Below, one piece after another: positions 33,292-49,159 of a DNA stretch of 64,000 bases. The stretch comes from a virus. Lineage: Duplodnaviria; Heunggongvirae; Uroviricota; Caudoviricetes. The notes under the pieces are model-generated. The model saw nothing but the letters and a program-made list of their open reading frames with translations. It had not been told where the DNA came from and ran no database searches. The stretch spans positions 64,001-128,000 of the IMG/VR virus record IMGVR_UViG_3300021387_000529; one strand, given 5' to 3'. The position numbers and the translations under genes were made by a program. Position 1 is the first letter of the stretch. Each line of letters opens with the position of its first letter.

Positions 33292-34062
33292 ATGAAATTT
33301 GATAACCAGATAATTTATGGCGCTATTCTTGGTGATATTGCCGGCTCAACTTTGGAAAATAAGTTTCCAGACAAAACTGAGCCTTTCCGTGAAATGGTTA
33401 AAAAAGGACATTTTACAGATGACACAGTTTTGACAATTGCTGTCCTTGATGCCCTCAAACATAAAAGAAAAATGGATGAAGCTTTCAAAGATTGGGGCTC
33501 ACGCTATTTTAATGCTGGTTTTTCAACAAACTTCAAAGAAAACATAATCTATCCAGAAGTTCCAAAGACTGGTGAATGCCATAGCAATTCAAATGGCGCT
33601 TTGATGATGCTTTCGCCTTTTATTGCAGCTCATAAAAATGACAATGACTACAGGCAGCTTATTGACCGAATGCATGAAGCAGTTAAAGTTACACATAACT
33701 GCACTGAATGTAATGAACTTGCATATGAGCTTATTCAACTCGCACGAGGTCAAGCTTATGGTTTTGCTTATGCATGCAGTATGCGGTATGCTAGTATTGG
33801 AGTTTATGAAGAAATGCTCAAAACACGAAAGTTTGACATTTCAGCATATGGAACTATGCGCGAAGCAATTATCATAAGGTTTATTTCAAAAAGTTTTGGT
33901 GAAGCAATTGAAAAATCTCTCATTCTTGGCGGTGACACTGACACTCGAACTTGTTTGGTTGGCATGTTGGCGGCTGGAGCATGGGGAATTGATGAAGAAG
34001 ATATTGAGCTCGTTCGTGATAAAATTCCTGGAGAAATGTTAAAAATTATTGAACTTCCTTAA
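33292..34062 (+). CDS. ADP-ribosylglycohydrolase (DraG/ARH family)
   Basis: GAILGDIAGS, FTDDT, SNGALM, TH, GGDTDT. Confidence 0.88.
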   Translation: MKFDNQIIYGAILGDIAGSTLENKFPDKTEPFREMVKKGHFTDDTVLTIAVLDALKHKRKMDEAFKDWGSRYFNAGFSTNFKENIIYPEVPKTGECHSNSNGALMMLSPFIAAHKNDNDYRQLIDRMHEAVKVTHNCTECNELAYELIQLARGQAYGFAYACSMRYASIGVYEEMLKTRKFDISAYGTMREAIIIRFISKSFGEAIEKSLILGGDTDTRTCLVGMLAAGAWGIDEEDIELVRDKIPGEMLKIIELP

Positions 34063-34077
34063 AACTTTTCATATATT
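34049..34077 (+). promoter_or_regulatory. Class I promoter
   Basis: TTGAAC-N17-TATATT overlapping the end of the ARH gene. Confidence 0.8.
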
Positions 34078-34097
34078 ATTTCCGTAAAGAGGTGAAT

Positions 34098-34919
34098 ATG
34101 AACTTGATTGAACTTTCAAAAGCACATAACTGGGGTCTTCCAACTGTTTGTCCAAAATGTGGTGGAGCTCTGGTTCTTTCAGAAAATCATAAACAGCTTT
34201 ATTGTGGAAACACAAACTGCAAATCTTACATCAGTGGTCGTTTGACGAAGTTTACCAACACTCTTGAAATCAAAGAGTTTGGAACAGCCACTGTTGAAAA
34301 AATCGCTGAAAAATTTGATAGTGTCAGCTGCATTTACAAAGATGATGTTTATGACTACCTCAAAACTCTTGATGGTTATGGTGAGCGCTCAATCGCTAAA
34401 ATGCGAAAAGAAGTTGCTGCTCACAATGAAATGACTCTTGCAAAGTTTATCGCAGCTTTCAATATTGAAGACATTGGTGAAAAAGTTGCTCAGAAAATTA
34501 TCGACAATGTTGCAGCCACAAGTCTTGAAGACCTGACTATTGCTGATGCTTCAAAATACATTGGTGATGGTGTAAAAGAAAAAACTGCTCAAAAACTTCG
34601 TGATGGCCTTGATGCTCTCAAAGATGACATGAAAGAAGTTTTGAAGTATGTCAAAATTGTTGGTGTTGAAGAACCAGTTCAGGGTAATCTCGGTGGTAAG
34701 TCATTCTGTTTCACTGGAGCTGCTTCTCGCCCACGTAAAGAACTTCAGCAGATGGTAAAAGATAATGGTGGTATTGTATTCGATTCTTGTAAAAAAGGTC
34801 TTGACTACCTCGTTCTTGCTGACCCGAACTCAACTTCTACGAAAGCTGTAAAAGCTCGCAAAGATGGCGTAAATCTCATCAGTGAAGAAGACTTCGTAAA
34901 AATGTGTGGAGGAAACTAA
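34098..34919 (+). CDS. ligA: NAD-dependent DNA ligase, C-terminal half only (Zn finger, HhH, BRCT)
   Basis: PTVCPKCG...LYC.N..C, HhH repeats (GYGERS, I.DIGEK.A), BRCT GKSFCFTG...K..KA...GV..ISE; no adenylation KxDG domain. Confidence 0.85.
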   Translation: MNLIELSKAHNWGLPTVCPKCGGALVLSENHKQLYCGNTNCKSYISGRLTKFTNTLEIKEFGTATVEKIAEKFDSVSCIYKDDVYDYLKTLDGYGERSIAKMRKEVAAHNEMTLAKFIAAFNIEDIGEKVAQKIIDNVAATSLEDLTIADASKYIGDGVKEKTAQKLRDGLDALKDDMKEVLKYVKIVGVEEPVQGNLGGKSFCFTGAASRPRKELQQMVKDNGGIVFDSCKKGLDYLVLADPNSTSTKAVKARKDGVNLISEEDFVKMCGGN

Positions 34920-34922
34920 AAG

Positions 34923-35144
34923 ATGACACGAAACAATACAAATTTTCCAATTCGACCTTTGCGGAATAATTATGGTATTTCTGCAATTGTTGCTCCGGTC
35001 ATCTATCTTGTTATATGTGCATTGAGTTCTGGAACACCAAATGATAAGTTTTCTACTTTCATCATGACGACTGGAGTTGTTGAGCTCTTCTTTTGGTTCA
35101 TGTTTAATTTCTTTGGTGACTGGAGTAAGAAAAATGGACATTGA
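34923..35144 (+). CDS. small membrane protein
   Basis: GGAGG SD; two hydrophobic segments. Confidence 0.55.
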   Translation: MTRNNTNFPIRPLRNNYGISAIVAPVIYLVICALSSGTPNDKFSTFIMTTGVVELFFWFMFNFFGDWSKKNGH

Positions 35145-35469
35145 TTGGGGAGATATTCTAAACGAAAAAGAAGAGCATGAAAAGCTTCTTGCAGATTGCG
35201 AAAAAGCTGTTAGAAATGAGCCTGAACTTGAACACGATATGGTTGTGCGAAAGACTTGGGCAGAATATGCAAAAGACATCAACAGAATGCGTGCTCAACT
35301 TCGTTACATGAAAAAGTCTGTTGGCTACCGTGGTGGTTGTTATTCACCATATGAAAATCAAAGAGACATCATTGACTGCGAAAAAGAAATCAAACGGCTG
35401 TGCAAACTTCGAGACACTGCTAAAGCGATGGAAAAAGCATCTGGCAATAAAATGGGAGAGATGAAATAA
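35134..35469 (+). CDS. hypothetical protein
   Basis: GGAG SD before ATG 35134. Confidence 0.6.
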   Translation: MDIDWGDILNEKEEHEKLLADCEKAVRNEPELEHDMVVRKTWAEYAKDINRMRAQLRYMKKSVGYRGGCYSPYENQRDIIDCEKEIKRLCKLRDTAKAMEKASGNKMGEMK

Positions 35470-35636
35470 TGAAATTTCCATTCAAAATCAGCACAAAGAA
35501 AAAGGAAGATTGCAGTAAGCTTTTACTCTCAACGTTCAGCTTTATCGCAAATTCTTCTAGTGACGGTAAGCCACAAGAAGTTTCATTAGACATTGATGGA
35601 ATGCCAAAAACTTTTACTGTAAGAATAGTAAAATAA
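35469..35636 (+). CDS. hypothetical protein (55 aa, not in the ORF track)
   Basis: TAATG coupling; MKFPFKIS...VRIVK*. Confidence 0.45.
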   Translation: MKFPFKISTKKKEDCSKLLLSTFSFIANSSSDGKPQEVSLDIDGMPKTFTVRIVK

Positions 35637-35640
35637 AAAA

Positions 35641-35661
35641 ATGGGAGCTTCAAGCTCCCAT
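35641..35661. terminator. bidirectional terminator
   Basis: ATGGGAGC-TTCAA-GCTCCCAT, same stem as 25132. Confidence 0.75.
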
Positions 35662-35668
35662 AACTTTT

Positions 35669-35959
35669 TTACCATCTTTTTGTTTTTTGCAATAGGACAA
35701 AGAAATAGTCTAAACCATCTTCTTCTTCCACAGGTTTGAATGTTCCTAAAAGCCGCGATTCAGCAGTTTCTTTAAGCTGTCTTACAAGCTCATCAGAATA
35801 CTTAATTTTCCTGTCTTCAGAATAATTGCTTGCAACATCCTTTGCAACTTTCAAGAGAACTTCTTCATTTTTAAGGTCTTTACGAGCAGCAACAATCACA
35901 ACAGCAATGTTACCAACTTCATTAAAGAATTTGAATTTAAATAAATTAAACTCATTCAT
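35669..35959 (-). CDS. hypothetical protein
   Basis: AAGGAG SD. Confidence 0.65.
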   Translation of the reverse strand: MNEFNLFKFKFFNEVGNIAVVIVAARKDLKNEEVLLKVAKDVASNYSEDRKIKYSDELVRQLKETAESRLLGTFKPVEEEDGLDYFFVLLQKTKRW

Positions 35960-36010
35960 AGGCTGTTCTCCTTATCTATAAAAATAGATTAACACAATCA
36001 ATATATTAGT

Positions 36011-36037
36011 AAAAAAGGGGACCAAACGGTCCCCTTT
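36011..36037 (-). terminator. terminator of the flagellin gene
   Basis: AAAGGGGACC-GTTT-GGTCCCCTTTTTT on the minus strand. Confidence 0.8.
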
Positions 36038-36089
36038 GACAATTTTTAATTTAAGCTATCTGATAGAAACCCACCCTCGAAACTATCAG

Positions 36090-36941
36090 CTACCGAAGTA
36101 AGGCCAAAACATTCTGTGACTGTGAGTTTGCATTTGCAAGCATTGCAGTTGCAGACTGCTGCAAAATCTGGTTTTTAGTGTATTCAACCATTGATTTTGC
36201 CATATCTTCATCACGAATGATAGACTCAGAAGATGTAATATTTTCGGCTGCGACATCAATTCCTTTCTTAGCTGTTTCCATTCTGTTTTGTACAGCACCT
36301 AAATCAGCACGTTGTTTGTTTACAGCTTTCAATGCTTCATCAATTGTTGCAATTGTTGAATTAGCTTCGTCTGCAGACGCAATTGAAATTGTGTTTCCTT
36401 CTTCGCCCTGAATACCAGTTAAACCAAGAGCTGAAGCAGTTGCTGATGCTACATTGATTGAAATATTCTGGTCAACATTTGCACCAATCTGGAAACTCAT
36501 TGCAATACCACCTTCTTTTGCAAAGCGGCCTGTAAGCATGTTCATACCATTGAATTGAGCTGAAGAAGCAATACGGTCAACTTCTGAAACAAGCTGTGAT
36601 ACTTCTACTTGAATCTGCATTCTGTCTTCATCTGTATACAAACCATTTGCTGACTGAACAGCAAGCTCACGAATACGCTGAAGAATATCACCAGTTTCTG
36701 CAAGATAACCTTCTGTTGTCTGAATAAATGAAACACCATTTTGCACATTTCTTGAAGCCTGATTAAGACCACGAATTTGTGAACGCATCTTTTCCGAAAT
36801 GGCAAGACCCGCAGCATCATCACCAGCTTTATTGATTTTCTGTCCTGATGAAAGTTTTTCCATTGATGACTGAAGAGCATTTGTGTTCAAGTTTTCCATT
36901 CTTGAAGCGAAAATGCTGCTCATATTATGATTGATAATCAT
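36090..36941 (-). CDS. flaB: flagellin, spirochaete FlaB type
   Basis: [86 protein letters not shown]; 283 aa. Confidence 0.95.
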
Positions 36942-36943
36942 TA

Positions 36944-36980
36944 AATCCTTCCTTGGAATTTTTCTGACTTTCCATTGTCT
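36944..36980 (-). promoter_or_regulatory. two CsrA-type GGA sites in the flaB leader
   Basis: Leader reads GAC-AATGGAAA-GTC (GGA in a small hairpin loop), then CAAGGAAGGA over the SD. Confidence 0.6.
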
Positions 36981-36988
36981 ATATTATA

Positions 36989-37016
36989 TTATCGGCATAA
37001 TTTAGCATAAAGTTTA
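36989..37016 (-). promoter_or_regulatory. sigma28 (FliA) promoter
   Basis: TAAA-N16-GCCGATAA on the minus strand upstream of flaB. Confidence 0.88.
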
Positions 37017-37023
37017 ATGTTTT

Positions 37024-37188
37024 TTAAACTAATAAATCAATTTTACTTTGTGCCTCTTCTTGTGGAGTTTGGATGTTTTCGATAGCCTCAGTTGCGCGTT
37101 CTTCTGTACGTTCTTTTATAGCTTCCTGAGGCTTTCCTTCTAACTGTGAAGCCAAAGATTGTGGCTTTACAATAGCTGAAACTTCCAT
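37024..37188 (-). CDS. 54 aa protein with a C-terminal IDLLV motif (YjfB-like motility-associated tail; not in the ORF track)
   Basis: GAGGT SD; MEVSAIVKPQ...QSKIDLLV*. Confidence 0.5.
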   Translation of the reverse strand: MEVSAIVKPQSLASQLEGKPQEAIKERTEERATEAIENIQTPQEEAQSKIDLLV

Positions 37189-37213
37189 AAGCAATACCTC
37201 TAAATAAGATTAA

Positions 37214-37834
37214 TTACATTCCAAATTTATCCAAAATTCTTTTTCCAAGATAATAAAGGAAATCACTATCGAGCCTTGACTTAAAGAGAGCATTAACAAT
37301 TGTCTTTGCCATTGTAGCATAAGCGCCATCTTGCTCAACTTCATTAAAAATACTAGTAAGATTTTTGCGAAGCTCATTCAATCGTTCTGTAGAGCAATTT
37401 CCTTCATTCAAAGTAGACTCATGCAATGGTGAGTTAAAAATATCATCAACAAGAGCCTCACCTTTTTTAGTAAGCTTATAGCTGTTTCTTTCGCTCATCG
37501 TTGTGTCAAGAAGGTCTGTTTTCTTCAATGCTGTAAAGAAATTGCTAAAATAGTTTGGTGGCAAACCAATGCCATCAAGAATTTCTCTACGTGTGCATCC
37601 TGGATGCTCAGCAATAAATTTCAAAGCTTTTGCGCCACGCATGTTTGGTTTCATGTTTGTAAAGTGGTATGCTTGTGTGGCCCAAGCTCCACCTAATGCA
37701 AGTTTACTATCATTCGCACGAGAAAAATTTTTTGGATGTCCAATAGACTTTACTTTTCCATATTTTGCAACTGTTCCCCATTGTGTATAACCAACATTGT
37801 GATGTTCATCATCATATAACTGTTCAGGTGTCAT
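37214..37834 (-). CDS. winged-helix domain protein (paralog of 22212-23024)
   Basis: FIAEHPGCTRREIL..IG...NYFS.FF...YKLTKKG; AGGAG SD. Confidence 0.65.
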   Translation of the reverse strand: MTPEQLYDDEHHNVGYTQWGTVAKYGKVKSIGHPKNFSRANDSKLALGGAWATQAYHFTNMKPNMRGAKALKFIAEHPGCTRREILDGIGLPPNYFSNFFTALKKTDLLDTTMSERNSYKLTKKGEALVDDIFNSPLHESTLNEGNCSTERLNELRKNLTSIFNEVEQDGAYATMAKTIVNALFKSRLDSDFLYYLGKRILDKFGM

Positions 37835-37865
37835 TCTAATTTCTCCTATATGTATTTAAATTAGT

Positions 37866-37899
37866 AAAAGACACCTGAAAATAAACAGGTGTCTTTTTT
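37866..37899. terminator. terminator hairpin
   Basis: AAAAGACACCTG/CAGGTGTCTTTT. Confidence 0.75.
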
Positions 37900-37901
37900 A
37901 A

Positions 37902-38657
37902 TTATTCTGCTGCGTCAGGAGTAACTGCAGGTTTATCTTCTACAGGCTTTGACTTATTATTTTTTGTCTTTTTTGTTGATTTCACAATTGTAGGCGCATT
38001 CTCAATTTTCTTGAATTCTTCGCTCATCAATTTCTGATATTTATCAACAATTTCATTCATTGCATCCTGTTTTGCCATAGCATCTGCCTGGAAATTGTTA
38101 AGACGCTGAACTGTCTCTTCAGATGAGAACCAAAAGTCTTTGCCATCAAGACATTGTTGGATTTCAGCTTCAGTCAAGAAATTCTTATAAATTTCTCTAA
38201 ATTGAGGTTCCCAAACTTTTTCGTCAAATTTAAGCTGTTCTTTCAATTCATTCCATTTTCCATAAGTCCAAGATGTCCAAGCATGTATCATAACACGACA
38301 ATGAGGGAAAACTTTCCAAGTGTCAGCAGCAAGCATAATCATAGTCGCAGCTGAAGCACACATTCCTTCAATCCAGAATTCAACATATGCATCTGACAAA
38401 TGAAGCGCATCAAAAATGTTCAATGCAACATTTACATCACCACCATAGCAATTGCAATGTACACGAATTGTATCATCAGCACGAGCGCTTGAAACTTCAC
38501 GTAAAAAGTCAATATAGTCTTCAACTGAGTCAATTTCTTCAGTTAAGAAAAAGTCGACTAGTTTTCCTTTATCTGTCTCAGATACACGAAGAACATCATT
38601 TTTGACATATTCTTCATCAGATTTCATCTTTTTACAATTGTTATGAATAATTCCCAC
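37902..38657 (-). CDS. ClpP-family serine protease
   Basis: NCYGGDV, GMCASAAT (catalytic Ser), MIH (His), D.WFS.EE; AAGGAG SD with a GTG start. Confidence 0.85.
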   Translation of the reverse strand: MGIIHNNCKKMKSDEEYVKNDVLRVSETDKGKLVDFFLTEEIDSVEDYIDFLREVSSARADDTIRVHCNCYGGDVNVALNIFDALHLSDAYVEFWIEGMCASAATMIMLAADTWKVFPHCRVMIHAWTSWTYGKWNELKEQLKFDEKVWEPQFREIYKNFLTEAEIQQCLDGKDFWFSSEETVQRLNNFQADAMAKQDAMNEIVDKYQKLMSEEFKKIENAPTIVKSTKKTKNNKSKPVEDKPAVTPDAAE

Positions 38658-38716
38658 TACTATTATCTCCTTTAGTGTATATATTATAATATATTAATAT
38701 TGAGAATTTCAGTATG

Positions 38717-38797
38717 TCTCTATATTACTATAATTTAAAATCTATAGGGTTTTCAAGTTTACTTACCCTTTTAAAGATTATTTAAACAGGTAAGTAA
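38717..38797 (-). repeat. Dispersed ~80 bp element, copy 2
   Basis: Reverse complement of 12743-12825 (35 bp and 21 bp identical blocks). Confidence 0.85.
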
Positions 38798-39223
38798 CCA
38801 TGTTTTCAATTCATCATAATTTTCTCTATTATATAAAAAATCATTTTTAGGACTATATTCAGTATTCCAATTTTGGAACATATTATTATAAATGCCTAAT
38901 TTTTTAAGTAAATCAATTCTCTCATAATTTGTAAATTTTTCGTCAATGTAAATTTTTATGTATAAGTCTTTTTCAAAATTTATAAACTTATCTGAGTATG
39001 AATTCACAATAATTATCTTATCATTATGTGATTTTTCTTGGTTCAAAATTGATGTAGCCATAAATTCATAATGTTTTTCAAAAGTTTTTCCATTTGACAT
39101 TTTTATATTTTTATCGATGTCTTCATAATGAAATACATTTGGAAAATCTTTTAATAGCTGATTTGATAAAGTTGATTTACCACTTCCAGAAGGACCAATG
39201 ATAATTAAAAATCTTGTGTTCAT
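38771..39223 (-). CDS. P-loop kinase-like protein
   Basis: IIGPSGSGKST. Confidence 0.6.
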   Translation of the reverse strand: MNTRFLIIIGPSGSGKSTLSNQLLKDFPNVFHYEDIDKNIKMSNGKTFEKHYEFMATSILNQEKSHNDKIIIVNSYSDKFINFEKDLYIKIYIDEKFTNYERIDLLKKLGIYNNMFQNWNTEYSPKNDFLYNRENYDELKTWLLTCLNNL

Positions 39224-39241
39224 TGTTAATATAGTTATATT

Positions 39242-39805
39242 ATGGGAAGAAGCAAACCAGTCTTTTATGAAGACACTCCAGACGAATTATATACAGTTGA
39301 AAAAACATACTCAGAAGCAGAAGAGACACTCATAAAATTTGTTGAGAAGAAAATTGCTCAAATGAATGAGTCTCTTTTATTCAATGGTGATGACACGCCT
39401 GGTTTTGGAAAATTAAATCAGGCTTTGATGGAATATGAAAGTGTCATGCTTGGTCTTTTGACGTTGCATCAAGAAGCTCGTTTTAAGGCATCAGTCGCTC
39501 AGGAAAAATACGATAATTTTTATGCTGAGAAATTTATTGAAGTTAAGACACGTGATGCGACATTAAATCCAAAGAAAATGATGGCTGCAAAAGAAATTGA
39601 AATGGCTGTTCGTAAAGAGAACATGACACAGCTTGCAAAATTGAAAGCAGATGTCCTTGAAACTGAAAATGAATACAATTTTATCAACCATCTTGTTGAA
39701 AGTTGGAAAGGCTATCAGTTTATCCTTGGAACATTGTCACGCAATTCACAAGCTGAAGCAGCAGCAACTGGCGTAGCATATCAAAATCCTTATGATGGAA
39801 ACTAA
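39242..39805 (+). CDS. helical protein, possibly a UvsY-like recombination mediator
   Basis: Coiled-coil; resemblance by eye only. Confidence 0.45.
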   Translation: MGRSKPVFYEDTPDELYTVEKTYSEAEETLIKFVEKKIAQMNESLLFNGDDTPGFGKLNQALMEYESVMLGLLTLHQEARFKASVAQEKYDNFYAEKFIEVKTRDATLNPKKMMAAKEIEMAVRKENMTQLAKLKADVLETENEYNFINHLVESWKGYQFILGTLSRNSQAEAAATGVAYQNPYDGN

Positions 39806-39813
39806 TAAAATAT

Positions 39814-40623
39814 ATGTTAGTTCCAAATAGTTTTTTTAGCTCAGACTTAGCGCAAAAGTATTTTATGACAAATAATATGATTGCGCTCAAAATTACAAAT
39901 GAATGCCCTTTAGCATGCGCACACTGTCGTGAAAATGCATCTATGGACAATAAAGGCGTTGTCTCAAAAGAAGTTATTGACACAGTCATAAAACAAATTG
40001 TTGATGGTGGCGATGCTGATAAATGGGTTGTTTGTTTACAAGGTGGTGACCCATTATTATATCCAGACATTTGTGAGTATGTAGTTAAAGAATGTCAAAA
40101 ACATAACATTGCAACAAATGTTTATACATCTGGTTGGTGGTGGAAAGAACATAAAAAATATGTGCCAATGATTTTAAATTGGAAGCCAACAATTGTTACA
40201 ATTTCTGTGAATGATTGGACAATTGAAAAGAATAACTGCGGTTTACAATATGTTGATACGATTGCAGAATATTTTCAAAGTAATGACACACCTATTTTGT
40301 TATATTCAGAGGTAAATTTAGACGGCGCAAAGTGGGGCCAACAATGTAAGTATAAAACATGCACAATTGCATATGAACTTGCAAAAGTTGGTCGTGCAAA
40401 AAATCTCGTTGGAACATATAAAGCACAAGGTAAAATAGAACGATGGATGGATACGTCTATTTGTGTATTAAGTGGTTTTGAAATAGGGATTGATGGAACA
40501 ATATATCCAAATTGTTGTGCAGCTTCTGGTGGCCCATGCAGATTTGGAAATGTTCTAAATGGCGACAATGTTTCAAAATTACGTGAGATAAACAGACATT
40601 CTAAAAAATGTAATATCTCATAA
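39814..40623 (+). CDS. radical SAM protein
   Basis: CPLACAHC, QGGDP, SGWW, VGRA; C-terminal C..G.EI..DG.IYP.CC. Confidence 0.85.
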   Translation: MLVPNSFFSSDLAQKYFMTNNMIALKITNECPLACAHCRENASMDNKGVVSKEVIDTVIKQIVDGGDADKWVVCLQGGDPLLYPDICEYVVKECQKHNIATNVYTSGWWWKEHKKYVPMILNWKPTIVTISVNDWTIEKNNCGLQYVDTIAEYFQSNDTPILLYSEVNLDGAKWGQQCKYKTCTIAYELAKVGRAKNLVGTYKAQGKIERWMDTSICVLSGFEIGIDGTIYPNCCAASGGPCRFGNVLNGDNVSKLREINRHSKKCNIS

Positions 40624-41544
40624 ATATAAGTCTGAATAGTCTAAATTAGAACAACTAAAATGCTTACTTGGAGCATATTGAAATTTTTTCACACCAGGTG
40701 GCAATTTGTCATCACTGCAACAGTTGAAGTCTGGATGTTCATCACACCACCACTCATTTGGAAAAACGTGAAAATATTCAAAGTTTTTTCCACAAGTAGT
40801 CAAATCATAATTTTTGTCAAATACTGACGCAAAATTACAACTTATTTTTGAGTCATGACAACAATCAAATCCAATATCTCCATTTGGTTTTATAGAACAT
40901 GCTACTTTGTGGCAACTTCCATAGTTAATTCTTTCTACATTTTTATCTTTATCATAGTCTGCTCTTCCCATTTCAAGAATTCCATCTTCATGAACTCTTA
41001 AATTTGGATATAGACTTTTTAGTCTTTCAACTTTCGGATTTCCAATGAAAGAGCATGGAACAATATGTGTGTCATTTTGGAATTCATCTATGATTGGAAT
41101 TATGTCCCTATCTACATCATTATCATGGTAATTATCAACTGATAAGAAAATTAAATATGGCTTTACATTTTCATGTATACGTTTTCTTATCTCAGGGTTT
41201 GAGCCCCACCAACCATTTGAAAAAAGACTGACATCAAAATTTAATTCATGAACTTTTTTCGCCAAATATTCACATTTATCTAATTCAAGTGTTGGCTCAC
41301 CTCCATATAGACAAACAACAGGTTTTATTTTAGTCTTCTTAAAATCTTTAAGTTTTTCGACAAATGCGTCAATTACTTTATAAGAAATATTCCAACTATC
41401 ATCACATGTGTGTTGAGCAGAATATGAACAAATTGAACATGAATAATTGCATCTGATTGTCATTAAAACATAGAAACCATAGCCTTTAATTGAACGTGCA
41501 AAATGGTATCTATAAGCTTCCTGATTTTCTTCATAAGAAAACAT
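40618..41544 (-). CDS. radical SAM protein
   Basis: CNYSCSIC, YGGEP, SNGWW, SVD.YH, GRA. Confidence 0.85.
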   Translation of the reverse strand: MFSYEENQEAYRYHFARSIKGYGFYVLMTIRCNYSCSICSYSAQHTCDDSWNISYKVIDAFVEKLKDFKKTKIKPVVCLYGGEPTLELDKCEYLAKKVHELNFDVSLFSNGWWGSNPEIRKRIHENVKPYLIFLSVDNYHDNDVDRDIIPIIDEFQNDTHIVPCSFIGNPKVERLKSLYPNLRVHEDGILEMGRADYDKDKNVERINYGSCHKVACSIKPNGDIGFDCCHDSKISCNFASVFDKNYDLTTCGKNFEYFHVFPNEWWCDEHPDFNCCSDDKLPPGVKKFQYAPSKHFSCSNLDYSDLYL

Positions 41545-41550
41545 ATAAAA

Positions 41551-41561
41551 TTAGTAACTAA
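41551..41561. promoter_or_regulatory. back-to-back class II (ACTAA-N6-ATG) promoters
   Basis: TTAGT-A-ACTAA; each half lies exactly 6 nt from the ATG of a divergent radical SAM gene. Confidence 0.7.
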
Positions 41562-41567
41562 ATCAAT

Positions 41568-42464
41568 ATGATTAAATTTGACTTCAATGACTTGGCTGAC
41601 CTTGCGATGAATGACTATAATAGACTTACATTTGAAATTATTATCACAAAAAAGTGCAATAGTAATTGTCCTCATTGCTTTATGGAAGGAAGCCAAGATG
41701 GAGTTATTACAAAAGATATAATTGATATTGCTCTTGAAAAATGTAAAAAATTGAAAGATGATAATTGGATTGAGTTATTCGGTGGTGAGCCTATGCTTGA
41801 GCCAGAACTATGTGCGTATACTTCTCAAAAAGCACATGAGCTTGGATTGAAAGTTTCATTATACACAAATGGATATTGGGGCAATTCACAGAAATTGATG
41901 GAATATGTTTGTAATGAAATAAAACCAGACTTTATTTTGATGTCAATAGATGACTTCCATACAATTCCAGACAGTTCTATAATGAGTATCTTAGAATTTT
42001 TTAATAATGGCAATACACCAAAAATTGGAATTTCTGCAGTAAAAGACCATTGCTCTAAATTAGAGACAAAATTTTTGCCAGCTTTTCCAGACTTAAATGT
42101 GTATTATATACGTCTTCATGAAGTTGGAAAAAGCGTAAAATATGAGAATAATGAAAAAGACTATTGTAGAATAGAAGGTTGGATTATTTGCCCAGACGGA
42201 GATGTCAGAATGGCATGTGAAAAAGGATATAAAGCATGCCGAGCTGGAAATATAAAAACATTAGATATTGTTAAGGCATATGATACTATAAAAGACATGT
42301 TTTTAGCATTTATGAGTGGCACACATTTATATGATTTTTGTAATAAAAATACAATAAATATTTTTGACAAGTCAACATTGTTAAGAAAAGACATTAAAAT
42401 AATGTCATTAGCAGAAATAACTGCAAAAAAGTCGAATCTTAGAAAAGCTGTACTTACTGATTAA
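41568..42464 (+). CDS. radical SAM protein
   Basis: CNSNCPHC, FGGEP, TNGYW, SID.FH, ICPDG.V..AC. Confidence 0.85.
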   Translation: MIKFDFNDLADLAMNDYNRLTFEIIITKKCNSNCPHCFMEGSQDGVITKDIIDIALEKCKKLKDDNWIELFGGEPMLEPELCAYTSQKAHELGLKVSLYTNGYWGNSQKLMEYVCNEIKPDFILMSIDDFHTIPDSSIMSILEFFNNGNTPKIGISAVKDHCSKLETKFLPAFPDLNVYYIRLHEVGKSVKYENNEKDYCRIEGWIICPDGDVRMACEKGYKACRAGNIKTLDIVKAYDTIKDMFLAFMSGTHLYDFCNKNTINIFDKSTLLRKDIKIMSLAEITAKKSNLRKAVLTD

Positions 42465-47782: not shown

Positions 47783-48226
47783 TTGAAGATGGTATCTTAC
47801 AAGATTTTTATTTTTATCACAATGATTTTTATGCATATTCTTGAGGATTTCCATCTTCAAGGCTGCTTGGCGAATTTGAAGCAGAAAGATTGGTGGGAGA
47901 AAAATGTCGCTAACTTAAAAGACACAATTTATGCTCGTGACTATGCAGTTGCGCTAATTACCCACTCAATTGAAAATTCTATTTTTGTCATAATGCCAAT
48001 TGTCATTGATAATTTAATTTACATGTGCAAAAATGGAATAGACACAAATGCTTGGAAATTGTGGGCAATCTTTATTTTGCTCAATACAGCTTTTCATACA
48101 TTTGTGGACAGCGCAAAATGCAATAAGAAAATAATCAATCTGGTTGTTGACCAAGTGCTTCATTTTGCTATGCTTATCATGATATTTGTTGTAAGTTGGA
48201 AGTATCTCGGCCTCTGGTTAATATAG
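47783..48226 (+). CDS. DUF3307-like membrane protein
   Basis: H...DF.LQG..A..K, H..VD..K, DQ.LH. Confidence 0.7.
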   Translation: MKMVSYKIFIFITMIFMHILEDFHLQGCLANLKQKDWWEKNVANLKDTIYARDYAVALITHSIENSIFVIMPIVIDNLIYMCKNGIDTNAWKLWAIFILLNTAFHTFVDSAKCNKKIINLVVDQVLHFAMLIMIFVVSWKYLGLWLI

Positions 48227-48243
48227 TCTATAACTAATTTTTT

Positions 48244-48306
48244 AGAGGACAGCAAGATTCCACCTTGTTGAGGGAAGTTTTCATCGAGCTTCCCTCTAAC
48301 TCTTTT
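48244..48306 (+). ncRNA. predicted two-loop small RNA complementary to the HNH mRNA leader
   Basis: Starts 6 nt after ACTAA (48233-48237); two hairpins plus a U-tract; loops complementary to 48329-48334 and 48356-48363. Confidence 0.6.
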
Positions 48307-48358
48307 ATACTAATTATTTTATAGTGCCGTGGAAAGCACTTAAAAGGAGAAAATATCG

Positions 48359-49159
48359 ATGAATTACAGACACATCTATATGTGTATAATTACACATGCA
48401 AAGACTTCTAATCGTAAACGTGGTGATGGGAATTATTATGAAAAACATCACATCCTTCCAAGAAGTTTATTTCCAAATTGGATAACAAAAGAATCAAATA
48501 CAGTCTTATTAACAGCTAGAGAGCATTTCTTCTGCCATCAACTTTTAACTAAAATTTATCCTTCATTTGAAATGGAAAAGGCTCTAAGCATATTTTGTAA
48601 ATTTAAACAAGATAAAAGAGCTTTGACTTCAAGACAATATGAAATTTGTAGAAAAGCTGCACATAGAGCAAATTTATTATGGTGGTCTGATGACTCAAAC
48701 AGAGAACGAATGAGAAAAAATTTACATGAAGCTCTGAAAACTAGAAAAATTGTTTTTAGTGAAAAAACCAAGCAACAAATGAGTGAAAGAAGCTCCAAGA
48801 GTCGTTGGTATAATAATGGAGAACGAGAAACTTTTTCAGTTAAATGTCCTGATGGGTTTATTCCAGGTAGATTAAAACTAACGAAAGAACAAAAACAGCA
48901 TAAATTAGAAGCTCTAAGAAAAAACAGAGCAAATAGAACTGAAGAAGAAAAACAGTTGGAATTTGAAAGACGATCTTTAGCTAATAAAAAGCGGCCTAAA
49001 AAACAAAAGAAAAATATTAATATAAGAAAATATACACTTGACGAATGGAATAATATACAGAAAAAGGCTAAGCTAACAGCTTTTGAAACTGGAAAGTCTT
49101 ATTCAGAGTGTATTAATTTAATTAAAAAGGAGGTATGCCCATGTCGAAAATATGTATAA
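48359..49159 (+). mobile_element. Free-standing MobE-like HNH homing endonuclease
   Basis: MNYRH.Y, YEKHHILPRS, N.VLLTAREHFFCHQLL.KIY; WYNNG...G.I.GR module. Confidence 0.88.

Follow-up and report, generated by a model that had tools for sequence, protein, structure and literature searches.

A jumbo phage carries a FlaB-type core flagellin gene behind a Treponema-like sigma-28 promoter

We analyzed a stretch of 64,000 nucleotides (nt) of phage DNA (hereafter the window), which corresponds to bases 64001-128000 of the virus record IMGVR_UViG_3300021387_000529, with a focus on flaB, a flagellin gene of the spirochaete type located at 36090..36941 on the minus strand. The source record is a 300,878-bp virus genome with direct terminal repeats and was rated 100% complete. 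On balance, we favor the explanation that a moron-like flaB cassette of this jumbo myophage feeds core flagellin into the periplasmic flagella of the infected cell; that is, the phage probably adds its own subunits to these flagella. This explanation draws on the conserved flagellin itself, its long residence in a clade of large phages, a FlaA-family gene in the same genome, and a promoter of the form used by Treponema for its own flagellin genes.

The product of flaB (P0001) is 283 amino acids (aa) long and matches the Pfam families Flagellin_N (PF00669; 141 bits, 3.4e-41) and Flagellin_C (PF00700; 84 bits, 8.4e-24), both scores being far over the cut-offs. Nothing lies between the two domains, which is the short build of spirochaete FlaB without outer domains, and the best solved relatives are flagellin chains of 284-286 aa (E 1e-100 to 1e-105). 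Each of five Treponema genomes carries three flaB genes, arranged as a tandem pair and a solo gene, and P0001 is 63-72% identical to these paralogues. The closest of them is the FlaB3 type, the second gene of the tandem pair, at 69-72% identity. The preliminary description of the window had reported an intact 283-aa FlaB-type flagellin among phage genes, and the two domains, the FlaB-like length and the identity to Treponema FlaB all bear this out. Both termini of P0001 are conserved to the level seen in hosts, which would be consistent with a protein that is still exported and polymerized into filaments.

The genes of the record include those for a tail sheath, baseplate wedge, NrdD, DNA polymerase, helicase, SbcC, GroEL, RIIA, a homing endonuclease, and a DNA methylase, and the replication and RIIA genes are T4-like. 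No tyrosine integrase was found in the phage genome, in a search that did not extend to serine recombinases. In the explanation that we favor, the phage is a jumbo myophage of the virulent type that infects gut or rumen Treponema. The residence of flaB in this genome was evaluated with independent assemblies, as had been proposed: one contig of 3,678 nt, assembled from another sample, runs across positions 35106-38784 with 42 differences, and one of 24.8 kb, from another study, covers 34000-37573, such that both edges of flaB are bridged. The nearest DNA to flaB is that of another phage (78% identity), and the best host DNA reaches 73%. A search of a phage record collection gave no DNA match and only protein matches below 60% identity to unannotated records, often short fragments. 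When metagenomes were scanned with the flagellin, most of the genes retrieved were host-type, at no more than 73% identity, and one further locus reached 85%.

At the protein level, homologues are abundant. Our search yielded at least 120 clusters (defined at 90% identity) with 75-98% identity, many of them on contigs of 245-403 kb and many from ruminant guts. The phage origin of these homologues (P0002-P0121) rests on the tree, the contig sizes, and the verified viral loci. In a FastTree phylogeny of 261 rows, the clusters and the verified phage copies formed one clade of 123 rows, which held no genome-derived Treponema row. An IQ-TREE phylogeny of 92 rows placed the 37 phage-clade rows on one side of a branch with an SH-aLRT value of 97, beside the FlaB3-type groups and apart from the clade of FlaB1 and FlaB2. 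The comparison with Treponema FlaB that had been called for therefore sets the phage copies apart as a lineage of their own. Seven of the 37 rows have a verified phage context (the window, L002, L101, L003, L004, L006, and G006, the last of 386 kb), and four further viral contigs place inside the clade.

Among the best 80 matches in species-representative genomes there was a single member of the phage clade, L006, which resides on the 306,108-bp contig C130 of G010, a metagenome-assembled genome (MAG) of 'Candidatus Fimenecus' (Clostridia). This contig carries flaB, flaA, and a tail sheath gene, whereas FliD, rod, and hook genes are all missing from its MAG; C130 is therefore a misbinned jumbo phage. 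The phage proteins that flank flaB are only 25-60% identical between relatives, gene order is not preserved, and the tail sheath proteins of these phages are 40-51% identical. Such diverged surroundings imply that the flagellin has long been resident in this phage group.

The pairwise ratio of nonsynonymous to synonymous substitution rates (dN/dS) among phage flaB copies was 0.11-0.18, with 0.147 for the sole pair with unsaturated dS, and 0.05-0.15 for pairs of host FlaB3 genes. This check across related phages, also suggested earlier, thus gives a value of about 0.15 and indicates that phage flaB is under purifying selection. For a strain in run X4, all seven of the differences listed inside flaB were synonymous third-position transitions (P ~4e-4). 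Along its length, the phage protein has the same conservation profile as 137 host FlaB sequences, and no residue diagnostic for the whole phage clade against hosts was found. P0001 itself deviates at 8 sites that are at least 97% invariant in the 137 host sequences, with ASA in place of GTM at 165-167 and Y217V among the changes. In composition, flaB has moved closer to the phage (35% G+C), with a G+C content at third codon positions (GC3) of 25% in flaB and 30-47% in host genes.

It had been stated that no other flagellar structural genes are nearby, which holds within the window but not for the genome, since a FlaA-family gene is located 52 kb upstream of flaB (genome position 48082-48915). 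Its product scored 33.4 bits against PF04620 (cut-off of 25 bits), and the homologues in L002, L003, and L006 scored 35-48 bits. The protein has a hydrophobic signal peptide at its start, matches solved FlaA chains at E 7e-4, and, as a structure model (pLDDT 70), has FlaA1 as its top Foldseek fold hit (E 1e-5, TM 0.33-0.44). In L002, L003, L006, and L223-225, flaA comes directly after flaB. In L234, it lies 1.9 kb downstream, and flaB there follows the gene that precedes flaA in this genome. Because flaA follows flaB in these relatives, we conclude that the ancestral module ran from flaB to flaA and that flaB turned into a separate cassette in this genome. The presence of a secreted FlaA sheath protein alongside a conserved core flagellin favors a structural role in the filament over a role mainly in FliW/CsrA titration.

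The promoter of flaB consists of a -35 element TAAA (37013..37016, minus strand) and a -10 element GCCGATAA (36989..36996, minus strand) in the layout TAAA-N16-GCCGATAA, with 47 nt from the end of the -10 element to the ATG by direct count and 45 nt for the window used in matrix scoring. The preliminary description had called it a near-consensus sigma-28 promoter, and we could sharpen this assignment to the genus-specific Treponema form. Fourteen Treponema flaB1-type genes carry TAAA(G)-N16-GCCGATAW, with the same N16 spacing, 151-163 nt before the ATG in nearly all. A matrix built from these 14 promoters scored the phage site at 25.1 bits, whereas the 99.9th percentile of a background of random 250-nt windows of the phage genome was 6.1 bits. 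Over both strands of the 300,878-bp genome, the strict pattern TAAA-N14-17-GCCGATAW has a single occurrence, the one at flaB, where simple arithmetic predicts ~0.5 matches genome-wide and ~1e-4 within 100 nt of flaB. Around the phage -10 element, 15 bases are identical to the promoter of one horse-gut Treponema. A sigma-28 promoter with a -10 of CCGATAA has been mapped for flaB2 of T. denticola (PMC9481697). FliA scored over its curated cut-off in six of six Treponema genomes, and the phage genome gave no match to sigma-70-family region 2. The similarity of these elements suggests that the flaB promoter would be used and would depend on host FliA.

Several relatives have kept elements of this promoter. 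L228 carries TAAAG-N16-GTCGATAA (19.6 bits), L227 has the same elements with N15 spacing, and decayed copies sit at the homologous position in L003, L006, and L004, while no sigma-28 promoter was found upstream of flaB in L002, L223, and L234. As intact or decayed copies occupy the homologous place in relatives, the promoter looks ancestral to the phage cassette and best preserved in this genome. Pattern scans of viral contigs, with either the leader or the promoter plus gene start, retrieved only the L004 record or nothing. We also considered GTTAATAT, found upstream of flaB in L002-L004, as a candidate phage promoter and rejected it, given that it is not enriched in the present genome (24 copies, with ~37 expected by arithmetic). 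In L003, it overlaps the -35 of the decayed sigma-28 site.

Transcription from phage signals may contribute as well. Upstream of flaB lies a unit that likely starts at the phage motif ACTAATT (37859..37865, minus strand), preceded by a terminator hairpin (37897..37866). Its first gene is a 206-aa open reading frame (ORF; 37214..37834, minus strand) with a weak winged-helix/MarR-like match (phrog_1687, E 2.8e-4), of which no homologue was found beside flaB in relatives. It is followed by a 56-aa ORF without a family match (37024..37194, minus strand), whose stop abuts the -35 element. Because no terminator was found between this unit and flaB, there may be read-through from it into flaB. The earlier statement that flaB uses neither phage promoter class is correct in that ACTAAWT, the frequent upstream motif of this phage, is absent at flaB, although it ignores this possible read-through. 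Only a G-first variant of the motif is present, in the promoter spacer, and such variants are rare upstream of genes (5 copies vs 66). Downstream, an intrinsic terminator with a 7-bp G+C stem, a 4-nt loop, and six T (36011..36034, minus strand; the same hairpin is also listed on the plus strand) ends the gene, in agreement with the claim that flaB has its own terminator. A hairpin with a G-rich loop (GGGTGGGT) in the 3' untranslated region (UTR; 36060..36089, minus strand) precedes it, and similar hairpins follow flaB in L003 and L006.

Between promoter and start codon, the short 5' leader (36942..36981, minus strand) contains three GGA motifs (36973..36971, 36952..36950, and 36948..36946), where two had been noted before. 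The last two fall within the Shine-Dalgarno region, and AAGGAAGGA, in which GGA overlaps the Shine-Dalgarno sequence, ends 5 nt before the ATG. A single GGA in a ribosome-binding site is weak evidence and nearly automatic, since such sites often contain GGA. The combination of GGA in a hairpin loop and GGA in the ribosome site was observed in five of seven phage leaders (shuffled mean 1.9). The host flaB1-type leaders have it in 48 of 51 cases (shuffled mean 8.1) and the host FlaB3-type leaders in 17 of 58 (shuffled mean 13.9), so the five phage leaders follow the flaB1 pattern. L002 and L003 each have two strong hairpins in their leaders (z -3.0 and -2.8). A leader block is common to the window, L004, and L234, and the first GGA sits on a 5-bp stem in L004 and a 3-bp stem in the window. 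A search of Rfam gave no family for either the region around phage flaB or the flaB leaders of hosts.

The partners for this type of control are present in hosts. FliW and CsrA were found as an adjacent fliW-csrA pair in six of six Treponema genomes, and no CsrA, FliW, FliS, FliD, rod, or hook proteins were found in the phage. Residue N234 of the flagellin, in the motif AAEN..SES.IRD, is invariant in 20 phage-clade sequences. By motif position, it equates to the asparagine that is needed for FliW binding in T. pallidum (N237), B. subtilis (N255), and B. burgdorferi (N287; PMC12327847). The claim that CsrA-type control has been kept gains support from the host FliW and CsrA and the invariant N234, but it is weakened by an upstream GGA that has only the 3-bp stem. 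CsrA control seems plausible for the clade and would be uncertain or weak in this phage, because of that short stem.

We propose the following sequence of events for the infected cell. The cassette, with its own promoter, leader, and terminator and with a FlaB3-like core flagellin as its product, would be transcribed by the RNA polymerase of the host, together with its FliA (sigma-28), from a promoter of the host flaB1 form, to which read-through from the upstream phage unit may add. Host CsrA would probably still act on the short leader, and host FliW and FliS on the protein. Through the flagellar export apparatus of the host, the protein would then reach the periplasm, where it would join the core of the periplasmic flagella, and the divergent FlaA sheath protein of the same phage, with its signal peptide, would join there. 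The phage would so maintain or retune the filament and thus the motility or shape of the infected cell. In this arrangement, the sigma-28 promoter would couple viral flagellin synthesis to the late flagellar gene class of the host, and FliW, CsrA, and FliS would couple it to export. Promoter use, the binding of CsrA, FliW, and FliS, export, incorporation, and a benefit to the phage are steps that we infer. The preliminary description had the phage plugging into the host flagellar regulon, and this idea gains from the promoter form, the host FliA, FliW, and CsrA, and N234; the titration role that it offered is less favored than a structural one. More tentatively, and as a possibility that we would not yet put forward as our main conclusion, a clade of 250-400-kb virulent-type phages of gut and rumen Treponema might rebuild both the FlaB core and the FlaA sheath of the periplasmic filament in infected cells, with flaB in this genome as a stand-alone gene under sigma-28 and FliW/CsrA checkpoints. 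On this bolder reading, viral flagellin would be made only in cells with a running flagellar export machine, and the virus would tap an assembly checkpoint of an organelle.

Several observations weigh against this proposal. The assignment of FlaA is based on weak scores (fold TM 0.33-0.44), and the phage FlaA used as a single query against six Treponema genomes gave no direct FlaA match. Treponema is the presumed host solely via the similarity of the flagellin and promoter. Several relatives are without the sigma-28 promoter, having lost it, which means that control by a host sigma factor is not essential to the clade. The leader hairpin in the window is weak, as its 3-bp stem misses the 4-bp criterion and its fold, with a z-score of -0.9, does no better than shuffled sequences. 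The complete IMG/VR record G006 (385,934 bp) has a flaB at 330945-331789 with a single frameshift near codon 44 and an otherwise open 240 aa, and no FlaA was detected in it. Either the module was lost recently in G006 or the frameshift stems from an error in sequencing; together with the missing FlaA, the frameshift suggests that the module is dispensable. Lastly, assembled contigs of RNA run X20 give nothing specific to phage flaB and speak neither way on its expression, which is predicted from its signals. The pieces that cover 36519-36740, the conserved flagellin core, are 88-90% identical and fit host genes, and the one exact piece, of 209 nt, lies on the gene downstream of flaB.

We weighed four other explanations, which we take in order of how well they survive. 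The first is a regulatory decoy, in which the flagellin or its GGA leader RNA mainly binds host FliW, FliS, or CsrA and shifts CsrA-dependent translation, for example to shut off host flagellin or to reprogram the targets of CsrA, with no need for entry into the filament. The invariant N234 corresponds to the residue needed for FliW binding in other flagellins (PMC12327847), hosts carry fliW-csrA while the phage has neither gene, and GGA leaders are retained in several phage copies. In Borrelia, moreover, cytoplasmic FlaB sequesters FliW and frees CsrA (PMC12327847). A decoy, however, would not require conservation of the whole protein as in host FlaB, including the polymerization and export regions beyond the FliW site. 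It would leave the co-carriage of a secreted FlaA unexplained and would not need a sigma-28 promoter. We therefore consider a decoy as the main function unlikely, and titration of FliW/CsrA possible as a side effect or alternative.

A second explanation also places the phage FlaB, with FlaA, in the filament but as a poison or brake, selected to impair motility or change cell shape, for example to hold the infected cell in place or to alter its envelope for lysis. The changes of P0001 at 8 host-invariant positions (among them GTM-to-ASA at 165-167 and Y217V) and the strong divergence of the phage FlaA from host FlaA would suit such a role, and deletions of single flagellins alter filament homeostasis in T. 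denticola (PMC9481697). Yet no position separates the whole phage clade from hosts, and both dN/dS and the conservation profile are like those of a working flagellin, which makes a poison subunit quite improbable in our judgment.

We think it very improbable that the protein has a non-flagellar use, either as a component or decoration of the virion or as bait for host defence or an animal immune receptor. The PHROGs flagellin-like family phrog_16088 has no assigned function and so leaves room for such a use. The FlaA partner, on the other hand, has a Sec-type signal peptide and would act in the periplasm, while virions assemble in the cytoplasm, and flaB bears host flagellar control signals. 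The filaments of spirochaetes are periplasmic, which limits their exposure to animal receptors and also counts against this use. An artefact or passenger, meaning chimeric assembly with a host fragment or recent neutral capture, is hardly credible despite the non-syntenic flanking genes of relatives, because contigs of another sample and another study cross both junctions, the nearest DNA is that of a phage with host DNA at no more than 73% where a host fragment would have near-identical flanks, the phage copies group in a single clade and are subject to purifying selection, and composition has moved toward the phage.

In comparison with known systems, the phage flagellin is closest to Treponema FlaB3 (FlaB1-3 being known from T. 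denticola, PMC9481697), with 69-72% full-length identity, the same 283-286-aa two-domain build, a like conservation profile, and the FliW asparagine. It differs in forming a separate clade (SH-aLRT 97), in its lower GC3, and in its 5' region, which lacks the long conserved leader of flaB3-type genes and has a flaB1-like sigma-28 promoter and short leader instead. Another phage-borne flagellin isoform in a flagellated host is that of FR-phi in Enterobacter, which pairs the flagellin FliC-P with the RNA-guided repressor TldR and changes filament make-up and motility (PMC13418256). In contrast to FR-phi, the phage described here is a virulent-type 301-kb myophage without an integrase or a TnpB/TldR-type domain (PF07282 had no match anywhere in its genome), the flagella of its host are periplasmic, a sheath protein is also carried, and a host sigma-28 promoter takes the place of repression of the host flagellin gene. 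With the flagellin/FliW/CsrA/FliS switch of B. subtilis hag and B. burgdorferi flaB (PMC12327847), flaB shares the GGA in the ribosome site, a further GGA upstream, the FliW asparagine, and a presumed host that has FliW and CsrA. There, the differences are that the phage supplies the flagellin alone and that the upstream GGA in the window is not in a stable hairpin.

The promoter shares TAAA, the 16-nt spacer, and GCCGATAA with Treponema sigma-28 promoters and differs in its shorter distance to the ATG (45-47 nt vs 151-163 nt in nearly all host genes). The flaB cassette resembles phage morons in standing by itself between transcription units of the phage, with a promoter of host type at one end and an intrinsic terminator at the other. 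Morons have mostly been described in temperate phages, whereas this one resides in a jumbo phage without an integrase and its cargo is a structural subunit of an organelle. Phage-encoded flagellin has so far been documented in temperate phages of enterobacteria, where it comes together with an RNA-guided repressor (PMC13418256). Our literature searches, which included term searches within large gut jumbo-phage surveys, turned up no account of spirochaete filament genes in phages. In the present case, a large clade of integrase-less jumbo phages carries structural subunits of the spirochaete internal flagellum, and in this member of the clade flaB appears to be wired to the flagellar sigma factor of the host. 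If the subunits enter the filament, these would be lytic viruses that maintain or retune the motility organelle of the infected cell, and their FlaB and FlaA variants would be a natural resource for asking how the make-up of the filament sets its stiffness and helicity in spirochaetes.

Some further features were observed in and around the cassette and its homologues. Flagellins that are 60-63% identical occur on the viral contigs L229, L232, L230, and L005, outside the main phage clade. The flanks of this group have homologues in the phage studied here, for example a Ro60-like protein at 64% identity, and the group may represent further phage lineages or separate acquisitions.

Host flaB3-type genes have a long conserved, apparently structured leader (TTCCTGCYG...GGTCTGAAAC...GGGGCGCA) without an Rfam match, located ~110 nt upstream in loci L007-L058 (e.g., L012:4890-5000) and not found in the phage copies. 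In the 3' UTR of these host genes, 20-60 nt past the stop and before the terminator, there is also a conserved hairpin, AAGAGAYTTCTGGATGTCATCTTTT, whose loop contains GGA (e.g., L012:5870-5900). The phage flaB copies bear a different hairpin, with the loop GGGTGGGT.

The motif ACTAAWT has 107 copies in the genome, and 66 of these are upstream of genes on the coding strand, with the C mostly at a distance of exactly 10 or 13 nt from the start codon. Among the examples listed, many have no AGGAG before the start. Examples in the window are the copy at 37865..37859 (minus strand) and a divergent pair around 41544/41568. Either these copies are -10-like promoters of near-leaderless mRNAs, or they act as a translation signal of a non-Shine-Dalgarno type.

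Among the neighboring genes, a separate 275-aa ORF at 34092-34919 (plus strand) corresponds to the C-terminal portion of a DNA ligase of the NAD-dependent type (zinc finger, helix-hairpin-helix (HhH), and BRCT), and a homologue of it is also near flaB in L003 and L006. On the other side, a ClpP-like protease at 37902-38657 adjoins a cluster at 38771-42464 in which three radical SAM genes and a P-loop kinase-like gene alternate in strand.

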